From: a virus
Lineage: Duplodnaviria; Caudoviricetes
IMG/VR virus record: IMGVR_UViG_3300043103_000174
Location: 1-25,615 of that record
Length of the DNA: 25,615 bases
Reading direction: 5' to 3' (one strand)
Shown here: positions 1,233 through 14,924 of the stretch, piece after piece
Layout: each line of letters opens with the position of its first letter
Position numbering within the stretch: the stretch's first letter is position 1
Program-made: the position numbers and the translations under genes
The notes under the pieces: generated by a model
The model's database searches: none
Told to the model about the DNA's origin: nothing
Seen by the model: the letters and a program-made list of their open reading frames with translations, nothing else

Positions 1233-1240
1233 TATCTTTG
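1233..1240 (+). promoter_or_regulatory. Bacteroidota primary-sigma -7 box (TATCTTTG); predicted start site near 1245
   Basis: Exact TAnnTTTG match in the AT-rich intergenic region upstream of the leader/ERF; no clear -33 TTG at canonical spacing. Confidence 0.6.
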
Positions 1241-1244
1241 TAAA

Positions 1245-1335
1245 ATAAATACTACCACCAAATGAAAAAAATTAACATTAACCCTCAATTTGAAATGCCT
1301 GTGGTAGGGCTATCGAGTTGGGGGTTTCTTATTTA
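1245..1335 (+). ncRNA. putative structured leader / small RNA (long hairpin with GUGGUA loop, possible pseudoknot and attenuator)
   Basis: 1280-1293 pairs with 1313-1326 (11 Watson-Crick + 3 G-U); inner stem 1297-1300/1307-1310; loop region 1301-1307 GTGGTAG complementary to 1252-1258 CTACCAC; U-rich tail TCTTATTT. Confidence 0.6.
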
Positions 1336-1336
1336 A
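1262..1336 (+). CDS. putative 24-aa leader peptide MKKININPQFEMPVVGLSSWGFLI
   Basis: Manual translation: ATG at 1262, TAA at 1334-1336; spans the whole hairpin and stops 7 nt before the ERF ATG. Confidence 0.4.
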   Translation: MKKININPQFEMPVVGLSSWGFLI

Positions 1337-1343
1337 AAATACT

Positions 1344-12938: not shown

Positions 12939-14924
12939 TTAAAATGTTGCTTGGTTTTCTAATACATTAACTCTATTTGTTTTTGCGGTTATTTCGTCAA
13001 CTCCAACGGTTGCTACAACGTTTATTGTGTTATCATTTTTACTACCTATTCGTCTGCCATTCTCATCGAATTGTGTACCGTCAACGTTTGCGTTTTGATT
13101 GCTAATTGTTGGGGGACCTGGAATAGATGCGCCACCGCCACCACTTGGACTTCCACCAGCAGAAGGACCGCCACCGCCACCTTCAAATTTTGACGCCGCA
13201 ATCTTTGCTATGTTTGCTAATGAAGTAGTAACTGCAAAAGCTAATGAAGCAATACCAGCGGGATTAGGCACAGGGCCAATTGCAACGGGTGCTGATGCTA
13301 ATGAACTTGTAACTGCTTTATATCCGTCAATAACTGCTAATCCTAATTGTAAGGCTTTATTTACATTAAATTGTTTTTTAGCAAGTGCCAACTCTTCTGC
13401 ACTGCCTTTCTTTAATTTAGCAGACTTTATAGTAAAGAATATATCAGTTACATTTTGAACTGATTGTAAAGTTTGTTCTGCTATTTTTATTGCATTAGCT
13501 CGTGATTCCTCTCTTGATGCTTTTTCTTTTGCTTGATTTTCTACAAATAAATCATTTTCTTTTTTATAATAAGCCTCTAAAAACTCTTGATTTTTTTCAT
13601 CCTGTGCTAATTTATCCGCAGCTGCTTTGTCGTCAAGTGCTTTTTTATCGGCTGCTGCTTTATCATCAAGTGCTTTTTTATCCGCAATTGATTTTTCATT
13701 AATGGCATTTAATTGAAACGCTAATGTTTTTTCAGATTCAATTAATTGAGCATTTTTTAAATCTTTAGATATTTTAGATTTATTGATTTCCTCATCCCTA
13801 CGCTCTTTATCTTTTACAGCCCTTGCAAATTGTCTTTCCTCTTCATTTTTAATATTATTTATTTGAGCATCCTCTAATTGTTTTAAAGCTGCTAAATTAG
13901 CATCCCTTAATTTATTAGCATTTTCAATTGACTTAGCATTTGCATCGTCGTCAATTTTTTTAATAGTGTTTTGAAAACCTGCCCTATCATTCTTTAATTT
14001 ATCTAATGCTTTCTTTTGCTCTTCTAATGATTTGTCTCCATTTGCTTTTACCTCGTCAGGATCAAATACCATTTTAGATATGCTACCAAAGAATTTATCC
14101 TCTAATCCAAAATCTTTACCAACTGCACTACCGATAGCATCAATACCTTTTAATATTGCGGTTATTGGTAATGATACAAATTTTAATAATCCCTCTAATA
14201 TTTCTCTATTCCTTGCCGCTGCTTTTACTTGAGCTTCATTAGTAGCAATGCTATTTTGGATTTGAATTTCAGATGCTTTAATAGTCTCATCTGTTTGCTT
14301 AATTTTCATCTGTAAAATTTCTTTTTCAGACTTGCCTTGTTGCTTTAAAATGTTATCTTGACTACCTAACGCATCTTGTTTAGCCTTTTCAGTGTCTAAA
14401 TTTTGTTGCGATTGTTTATTTAGCTTTTCTTGTTCACTACTAACACCACTAACTAATCCTTTTAATTCATCCCAATAAGCTATTATTAATCCTAATGCAA
14501 CTAAGAAAGCACCGATACCCGTTGCAATCATAGCCTTTTGAACGCCACTTAATGAAGTCATTGCAGAACTTCCAAACTGCATTATTCCAGACTTCATTGA
14601 ATTTAAACCGATTTTTATTTTATCGATATCTAAATTCATTACACCCTCTTTTAATTGGCCAAATCCTTGCGTTAATTGTTCAACACCCGTACCTTTTAAA
14701 GAGTTTGTTGAATCACTTAAGTCGTCAACTTTATCTTTTAAATTAGCTACATTCTTTGACGCATCTTGAAACTGTTTAGAGTTAGTTCCAAACTGTTCAC
14801 CCATTTTGACTTGCTCATCACGAGCTTCCTTAATGGCATTCTTTAAATCCTTTATTGATGCAATTGACTTTTCAGCCCCTTGCACTTCGACTTGTACCCC
14901 AACCTTTTGTGTATTATCTGCCAT
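12939..14924 (-). CDS. tape measure protein (661 aa)
   Basis: Helical Ala/Lys/Gln-rich; ATGIGAFLVALG.IIAYWD hydrophobic segment; 11-aa repeats; Gly-rich linker near the C-terminus. Confidence 0.82.
   Translation of the reverse strand: MADNTQKVGVQVEVQGAEKSIASIKDLKNAIKEARDEQVKMGEQFGTNSKQFQDASKNVANLKDKVDDLSDSTNSLKGTGVEQLTQGFGQLKEGVMNLDIDKIKIGLNSMKSGIMQFGSSAMTSLSGVQKAMIATGIGAFLVALGLIIAYWDELKGLVSGVSSEQEKLNKQSQQNLDTEKAKQDALGSQDNILKQQGKSEKEILQMKIKQTDETIKASEIQIQNSIATNEAQVKAAARNREILEGLLKFVSLPITAILKGIDAIGSAVGKDFGLEDKFFGSISKMVFDPDEVKANGDKSLEEQKKALDKLKNDRAGFQNTIKKIDDDANAKSIENANKLRDANLAALKQLEDAQINNIKNEEERQFARAVKDKERRDEEINKSKISKDLKNAQLIESEKTLAFQLNAINEKSIADKKALDDKAAADKKALDDKAAADKLAQDEKNQEFLEAYYKKENDLFVENQAKEKASREESRANAIKIAEQTLQSVQNVTDIFFTIKSAKLKKGSAEELALAKKQFNVNKALQLGLAVIDGYKAVTSSLASAPVAIGPVPNPAGIASLAFAVTTSLANIAKIAASKFEGGGGGPSAGGSPSGGGGASIPGPPTISNQNANVDGTQFDENGRRIGSKNDNTINVVATVGVDEITAKTNRVNVLENQATF
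13611..13683 (-). repeat. tandem 33-nt (11-aa) repeat DKKALDDKAAA x2 in the tape measure
   Basis: Directly visible in the translation and the DNA. Confidence 0.8.

Follow-up and report, generated by a model that had tools for sequence, protein, structure and literature searches.

A covarying leader RNA family of Bacteroidota phages with the layout of a probable RNA switch

In phages P1 and P7, processing of C4 RNA yields a mature, trans-acting RNA with two antisense loops that have paired target sites. The pairing of its loop words with sites in its own operon blocks a short upstream open reading frame (ORF) needed for read-through, the second target lies at the start of the downstream icd-ant operon, and specificity shifts by compensating substitutions. 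In the plasmid systems ColIb-P9 repY/repZ, R1 tap/CopA, and pT181, translation of a leader ORF gates the next gene and is blocked by pairing with a separate counter-transcript from the opposite strand. The general role of C4 is outlined in the available part of PMC8201110. According to the available part of PMC4825925, the CI RNA of phage P4 is processed out and pairs with sites upstream and downstream (seqA and seqC), and the leader that we describe here is alike in that a phage leader complements an upstream site of the same transcript and premature termination is controlled. The same portion of PMC4825925 describes Gifsy-1 IsrK, which is alike in having an ORF with conserved DNA and a variable peptide that couples translation to the next gene, and the short terminated form of which acts in trans on its own read-through form, as in the mode of action that we propose below. 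The guanidine-IV riboswitch (PMC11611296, in the part available) has an intrinsic terminator whose loop region pairs with a 5′ element, a layout that the present leader shares.

The stretch of DNA analyzed, referred to here as the window, is a 25.6-kb linear virus record with an estimated completeness of 76%. The first gene proposed to be gated by the leader is erf (1344 to 1892, + strand), which encodes an ERF-superfamily single-stranded DNA (ssDNA) annealing protein (PF04404; E value, 4.3e-24); a Siphovirus Gp157-like gene (1892 to 2380, + strand; PF05565; E value, 4.7e-31) overlaps the erf stop codon. Upstream of the leader, and relevant as context only, lies a DUF3127 gene (876 to 1202, + strand), the product of which is annotated as an ssDNA-binding protein in Flavobacterium phages. 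All 90 GenBank phage matches of the window's DUF3127 protein belong to Bacteroidota phages, and these relatives, together with the cultured Cellulophaga phages that carry the leader, bear out the Bacteroidota phage origin put forward in the initial annotation. No integrase of families PF00589 and PF07508 was found in any of five records (the window and four relatives, one of them complete), and a role in lysogenic immunity is not supported for these five. The annotation of the leader-bearing phage phi19:3 lists a tyrosine recombinase and a repressor.

The leader of the window consists, in this order, of a promoter box, a 7-nt word, a start codon, a short ORF, a terminator-like hairpin with a loop complementary to the word, and the next gene. 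The box, TATCTTTG (1233 to 1240, + strand), matches the pattern TAnnTTTG, the Bacteroidota −7 promoter consensus in the available part of PMC7366714. It is present as the initial annotation had it, at chance level on its own in the AT-rich window (51 boxes versus 48.6 expected), and its weight rests on its conserved position, 8 to 16 nt upstream of the word in 28 of 30 rows, the exceptions being one contig end and one member of another architecture. Transcription would start near 1245 to 1247, and an A-rich stretch (1247 to 1250, + strand) holds the −13 adenine of the leader ORF initiation region, as judged by adenine counts in the family to which this leader belongs (family A). Within that initiation region lies the 5′ word CTACCAC (1252 to 1258, + strand), the exact complement of which, GTGGTAG (1301 to 1307, + strand), forms the apical word of the hairpin. 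The 24-codon leader ORF (1262 to 1336, + strand), the peptide of which is unconserved, spans the whole hairpin and the U-rich tract and stops 7 nt before erf; both the word pair and this ORF were correctly described from the start.

The interrupted hairpin (1280 to 1326, + strand) has a 14-bp lower stem, a 3 × 2 internal loop, and a short upper stem. Its minimum free energy (MFE) fold holds 14 + 4 = 18 pairs at −24.7 kcal/mol (z = −2.99), a value equaled by 2 of 200 shuffled sequences. All four non-Watson-Crick pairs are G-U on the + strand, in agreement with the initial annotation, and the opposite strand folds to just −11.8 kcal/mol. The 18-bp hairpin proposed earlier stands in pair number, but its apical closing pair U1300-G1307 is unconserved, as the corresponding columns read A and C in variant members. 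G1307 was therefore assigned to the word-loop helix, leaving as the conserved apex a 3-bp stem with an 8-nt loop. A U-rich tail had also been claimed, and the tract (1325 to 1334, + strand) directly adjoins the stable stem, a feature of intrinsic terminators; termination itself is predicted, with the 3′ end of a short RNA of about 85 to 90 nt placed in this tract. The 10 nt after the stem contain 6 to 9 U in 49 of 49 family A members. A simple terminator scan, which does not allow internal loops, did not call the window's hairpin. The 5′ word is single-stranded in the MFE fold, and the window's leader has no 5′ hairpin. Nested cotranscriptional folding predicts word-loop pairing in cis as the earliest structure to form; this helix (7 to 8 bp, −9.1 kcal/mol in family A) is the fold predicted from 1307 to 1318 and gives way only near 1322. 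The nascent helix is also predicted to reach the ORF start codon in the window (1259 to 1263 with 1288 to 1292), an extension that by eye is absent in several relatives.

Relatives of the leader were collected with a pattern that initially fixed the loop letters and, in rescans, left the loop free. With all 8 loop positions free, viral contigs yielded 73 loci, 57 of them distinct; 21 had a 7- to 8-nt upstream complement, and the rest were mostly chance matches. Metagenomes, scanned with 5 loop positions free, yielded 46 distinct loci, with a 7- to 8-nt complement in 32 of the 35 that had a hairpin of −18 kcal/mol or better and in 0 of the 11 weaker ones. A set of 50 members was then filtered on flanks, stability, and an AT-rich linker, complementarity not being a criterion; GC-rich matches lacking such a linker and hairpins weaker than −18 kcal/mol were excluded. 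From the alignments we omitted L103, which has another architecture (A1 and A2), and L081, which lies at a contig end (A2). The 50 distinct members carry 7 loop words, each of which matched its own upstream word over 6 to 8 nt and foreign words over at most 5 nt. Among the 49 aligned members, 99.7% of the word-loop cells were paired, and double changes occurred in 5 of 7 word-loop pairs. In the lower stem, the pairs covary as well, with double changes in 8 of 16. The 32 double-change cells of the word-loop helix, which amount to about six independent word changes, were reached in 0 of 500 shuffles, and sliding the partners lowered the paired fraction to 30 to 48%. The window's word is shared by 38 of the 50 members, partly by selection, and two invariant word-loop pairs and the upper stem were fixed by the patterns or the filter and have no evidential weight. 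The hairpin folded better on the + strand in 23 of 23 members, and the linker measured 20 to 27 nt in 49 of 49, with no tracking of stem height (r = 0.14, over a narrow range).

The clearest single case is the pair L102 and L272, in which 4 of 14 word positions differ, in step, versus 5 of 81 positions elsewhere; a second pair of near-identical leaders shows a word jump at 6 of 14 versus 8 of 82 positions. Accelerated word evolution was seen in such single pairs and not overall in family A, in which, for a set chosen in part by the word, the words change at a lower rate than the remaining leader sequence; in the sister family B described below, the rate is not cleanly measurable because pattern-fixed letters lower the background. 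The window carries one leader, and relatives have up to three or four per genome with a different word in each; leaders co-resident in one phage genome do not cross-pair. The leader is a real, strongly covarying RNA family of Bacteroidota phages under selection. The initial annotation had argued for selection on a + strand RNA structure with loop-to-5′-site pairing and proposed covariation in the stem and between loop and 5′ site as a check, and compensatory changes were found in both.

Among 80 ERF relatives examined, only the five closest have the leader. A word-plus-apex pattern matched 29 viral loci, 28 of which share the layout, and the genes behind the leader encode different ERF subfamilies, DUF6291 and weakly DUF1376-like replication proteins, and small unknown proteins. 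Family A as a whole comprises 50 distinct leaders ahead of ERF, replication, HNH, and other genes. Since few ERF relatives carry it and it precedes unrelated genes, the leader is a portable module and not an erf feature, and the earlier idea of a switch specific to the ERF-Gp157 genes was not borne out. A covariance model built from 23 family A members matched cultured Cellulophaga phage phi19:3 (E value, 4.4e-10), and cultured Cellulophaga phages phi13:2 and phi46:3 carry the leader at 97 to 99% identity, the phi46:3 copy preceding an HNH gene; among the copies in these cultured phages is one at NC_021789.1, 4123 to 3994, minus strand. Applied to 23 candidates per genome in 151 genomes of one Bacteroidota class, the model gave three weak matches, none passing the leader scan, which is no test of absence. 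A pattern scan of GTDB gave 8 matches, 7 chance-like in GC-rich DNA and 1 real. The real one (L182) is a perfect family A leader, accompanied by an ERF-like gene, on a 2.7-kb contig of a Woesearchaeota bin, which is probably mis-binned phage DNA. Searching GenBank phages with the leader by blastn returned just short AT-rich matches, as it did for one family B leader. A word-plus-complement pattern free of stem letters gave 40 matches, 16 of them chance-like and lacking the family stem, and a loop-free scan within one subfamily gave 6, all previously found and identical in the loop. Contigs from three sequencing runs of one study covered parts at 85 to 99% likeness, with no bearing on ends or expression.

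Several loci depart from the common arrangement. Six family A leaders (L252, L257, L265, L430, L433, and L440) have no clear TAnnTTTG box by the pattern used and may use variant promoters or belong to other hosts. In L103 (1461 to 1595, − strand), the word pair occurs in another layout, namely, a word, a hairpin with a complementary loop, and a second long hairpin; this leader precedes a small helix-turn-helix/excisionase-like ORF, has no Bacteroidota box, and is more C4-like. In L167 and L170, 100 nt 5′ of a replication-like gene, the word in a hairpin loop is complementary to one or two downstream copies adjoining a start codon, a mirror image of the window's layout.

In Bacteroidia, translation initiates without Shine-Dalgarno pairing and is favored by adenines at −3, −6, −12, and −13 and by low structure (PMC9976891, in the part available). 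Family A leader ORFs have A at −13 in 46 of 49 members and at −12 in 32 of 49, and the 5′ word is placed between the −13 adenines and the ORF start codon; at −3, A occurs in 18 of 49 leader ORFs versus 38 of 49 next genes. From codon 2 to the loop, the ORF frame is open in 49 of 49 members versus 17 and 11 for the other frames, as computed without the ATGA letters of the search pattern. The ORF crosses the hairpin in 48 of 50 members, with the loop read in two frames (26 and 24 of 50). In most members it stops no more than about 14 nt from the next start codon or is fused to the next gene, and its stop codon lies at least 9 nt past the stem in 47 of 49 members, which is partly forced by the composition of the U-tract. 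The leader peptide had no Pfam match. Judged from these sequences, translation of the leader ORF is selected and the peptide is not. The hairpin starts 19 to 27 nt after the ORF start codon and would therefore lie outside the footprint of an initiating ribosome. In L265, the word is repeated just before the ATG of the next gene, which fits a masking of start sites. A second word copy at another start codon was found in neither the window nor four relatives, and one next to the leader occurs in 1 of 49 family A members and, among the family B matches listed, in 2 of 60.

Regions 5′ of replication-gene homologues, retrieved by protein search, have the family A layout with other words. A sequence-blind scan recovered 64 promoter-plus-hairpin leaders, 31 of which had at least 7 complementary nt versus 2.8% in cross-paired controls; 22 of these 31 carried the preselected word and 9 carried others (one probably by chance). 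Family B was defined by a pattern that left both words free and comprises at least 98 distinct matches of about 200 stretches estimated in total. Of the matches listed, 60 carry a promoter box, and the pairing reaches 9 nt or more in 55 of these, versus in 3.7% of 3,540 non-cognate pairs and in 6 of 38 listed matches without the box. At least 40 words occur across the 60 listed leaders. The 57 of the listed leaders that were scored have 513 Watson-Crick, 54 G-U, 3 other, and 0 A-C pairs, and the presence of G-U but not A-C pairs points to a + strand RNA rather than a DNA repeat. The family B word, 10 to 12 nt long, lies at the inferred 5′ end of the transcript, beginning 4 to 5 nt past the box in 60 of 60 matches listed, and its partner is the 3′ side of the terminator's internal loop. 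The ORF covers the 5′ arm in 60 of 60 and passes the whole hairpin in 29 of 60 of the matches listed. L282, L291, L321, and L335 are examples of this family, and many of its downstream ORFs resemble, by eye, HNH/NUMOD4 or GIY-YIG endonucleases. In the closest relative of the window (L001, 3574 to 3711; L196, 9387 to 9524), erf and gp157 are separated by an inserted endonuclease-like gene that comes with a family B leader of its own, bearing a different word, which suggests that the leader travels with the mobile gene. In ORF-less forms, the word sits in a small 5′ hairpin loop (kissing layout). These forms occur in cultured phages, i.e., phi18:3 (L465, 501 to 690), Flavobacterium phage hemulen6-1 (L461, 13726 and 14751 to 14920), and elemoA (L467, 201 to 370), and the same promoter stands ahead of the ORF-less form in phi18:3 and of a family A leader in phi19:3.

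We consider it likely that the leader is an RNA switch gating the next genes. The pairing is selected and covers the initiation region, and the ORF crosses the terminator-like hairpin; a ribosome on the ORF would mean ON and the loop on the word OFF. The reading that we favor, at slightly less than an even chance, is a translation-coupled attenuator in which the predicted short terminated leader RNA binds new transcripts in trans and switches erf-gp157 off. On a fresh transcript, a ribosome would start at 1262 and open the hairpin, RNA polymerase would pass the U-tract, and the ribosome finishing the ORF would arrive 7 nt before the erf start codon (ON). Transcripts without a timely ribosome would end near 1332 as a stable RNA of 85 to 90 nt. 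As this short RNA accumulates, its loop would cap the word on nascent RNAs, the word being first to exit the polymerase, and both ribosome loading and nascent word-loop pairing would be blocked, such that the hairpin closes (OFF). The outcome would be a burst of expression after entry followed by self-silencing, each leader answering just its own word. We favor such feedback in trans because it gives the switch an input and explains both the one word per leader and the word jumps; it would also suit ORF-less forms, whose cis pairing it would block, and has precedents in P4 CI and IsrK. The sequence patterns that support it are the covariation, the ORF frame kept open, the L265 repeat, the non-cross-pairing words, the word jumps, and the 5′-end word of family B. 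Arguing against it, a helix of 7 to 8 bp seems weak for an interaction in trans, the loop of the short RNA could be quenched in cis by the word that this RNA itself carries, there are hardly any further targets, and word divergence in family A appears slower overall. ORF-less versions, moreover, replace the leader behind the same promoter, which implies that part of the class does without the ribosome step; only 29 of 60 family B ORFs among the matches listed pass the whole hairpin, and IsrK, although it acts in trans, is an activator. The prediction that cis word-loop pairing forms first fits the rival mechanisms equally well.

The strongest of these rivals, though an unlikely one, is an antiterminator in cis: the word would pair with the emerging loop and delay closure of the terminator, so that pairing means ON, the ORF merely translates the read-through message, and Mg2+, temperature, a protein, or the 30S subunit sets the read-through fraction. 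The predicted order of folding, with the word-loop helix first (1307 to 1318) and displaced near 1322, is what such a device would need, the 20- to 27-nt linker (49 of 49) is long enough for the word to reach the loop, ORF-less kissing forms exist and are interchangeable with the ORF form (phi19:3 versus phi18:3), and the guanidine-IV riboswitch offers a precedent (PMC11611296, in the part available). However, with the word in the ORF initiation region, ribosome and antiterminator would both act as ON, leaving no OFF input unless an RNA acts in trans; in addition, the words vary freely with no conserved ligand-binding letters, and the window's leader lacks a 5′ hairpin. Somewhat less probable is a lock acting only in cis: once the hairpin has closed, its loop would form a pseudoknot with the word of the same RNA and keep the ORF silent, letting through only ribosomes loaded in the course of transcription, and the switch, with no trans action, would dose toxic or costly genes or sense the host initiation rate. 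It is energetically the simplest arrangement, as intramolecular pairing gives a 7-bp helix a large concentration advantage, and the lack of word targets elsewhere at start codons in the window and four relatives is in keeping with it, as is the scarcity of −3 A in leader ORFs (18 of 49 versus 38 of 49 next genes). Moreover, with the ORF stop at least 9 nt past the stem in 47 of 49 members, partly forced by U-tract composition, the terminated RNA would be a non-stop message better left untranslated. This lock leaves the ORF-less members unexplained, however, and linker length fails to follow stem height (r = 0.14 over a narrow range); the loop word would also emerge about 25 nt before the termination point, late for that decision.

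An amino-acid-sensing leader-peptide attenuator, or a functional peptide, is improbable: a short ORF does overlap a terminator-like hairpin, but the frame used across the hairpin differs between members (26 versus 24 of 50) and the peptides are unrelated, with no run of control codons and no Pfam match. Least probable of all is an inverted repeat in the DNA that a protein recognizes, as operator half-sites or a recombination site, with an incidental terminator, for although family A words are exact DNA inverted repeats, they change in step between relatives at varying spacing, the partner is in every case part of an RNA hairpin, more stable on the + strand in 23 of 23, and the mismatches, G-U on one strand, include no A-C, which largely refutes this reading. 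An antisense promoter was likewise rejected, since the minus-strand −7 boxes at 1400 and 1432 inside erf are not above chance and, lying inside erf, cannot be common to members with other downstream genes.

Early-gene timing and dosing are poorly known in Bacteroidota phages, and how an RNA blocks initiation in hosts without Shine-Dalgarno pairing is a question to which the leader offers a minimal answer of about 90 nt. The natural compensatory variants are ready-made controls, and cultured phages with copies (Cellulophaga) or ORF-less relatives (Flavobacterium) make the leader directly testable. If the leader RNA acts in trans, its many non-cross-reacting words would amount to a naturally occurring panel of orthogonal regulators for Bacteroidota and possibly to an RNA-based exclusion code between coinfecting phages. 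We tentatively suggest, with less confidence than for the feedback in trans itself, that these RNAs form a large uncatalogued class of protein-free self-silencing leaders of Bacteroidota phages and mobile HNH genes, whose own address words allow independent early-gene pulse generators to operate side by side, and in which a resident RNA silences an incoming phage with the same word and thereby drives word switching.

Compared with described systems, the leader has no named counterpart. The window and 35 related loci gave no Rfam match at gathering score, and 8 matches up to an E value of 10 were chance-like; the C4 model (RF01695) gave no match at gathering score in the same sequences and was not among the 8 weak matches. 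This Infernal search, foreseen in the initial annotation, supports its wording of a possibly undescribed RNA. We found no description of such leaders in Bacteroidota phages in the full-text literature searched, although catalogues of RNAs from comparative screens could hold the motif unnamed; no entry was matchable by name in the motif table of the available part of PMC2864571, and the available parts of PMC9723704 and PMC11946311 contain nothing on such a leader. The second downstream target and the link to lysogenic immunity expected from the C4 and CI analogy were not found in the window. Unlike C4, the window's leader has one hairpin with a single loop word, its ORF runs through the RNA itself, and the genes behind the family are erf, replication, HNH, and others rather than icd-ant. 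A seqA-like upstream site is present, analogous and not homologous to that of P4 CI, but one hairpin serves as both terminator and antisense loop, and the single upstream site has no seqC-like companion that we could find. IsrK activates, and orf45 lies downstream of its terminator (PMC4825925, in the part available), whereas here the ORF begins 18 nt before the hairpin and runs across it. By analogy, the leader would work like the C4/CI/IsrK group, yet it departs from the features that define them, with one loop, no downstream target, and an ORF through the RNA. The conserved control codons of amino acid leader-peptide attenuators are absent from the family, and in contrast to the plasmid systems, blocker and target lie on one strand within 60 nt. 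Relative to guanidine-IV, the window's leader has an overlapping ORF and lacks a conserved ligand pocket, an Rfam match, and a 5′ hairpin, while the kissing layout of that riboswitch, in which a 5′ hairpin loop pairs with the terminator loop, is matched by the ORF-less relatives.
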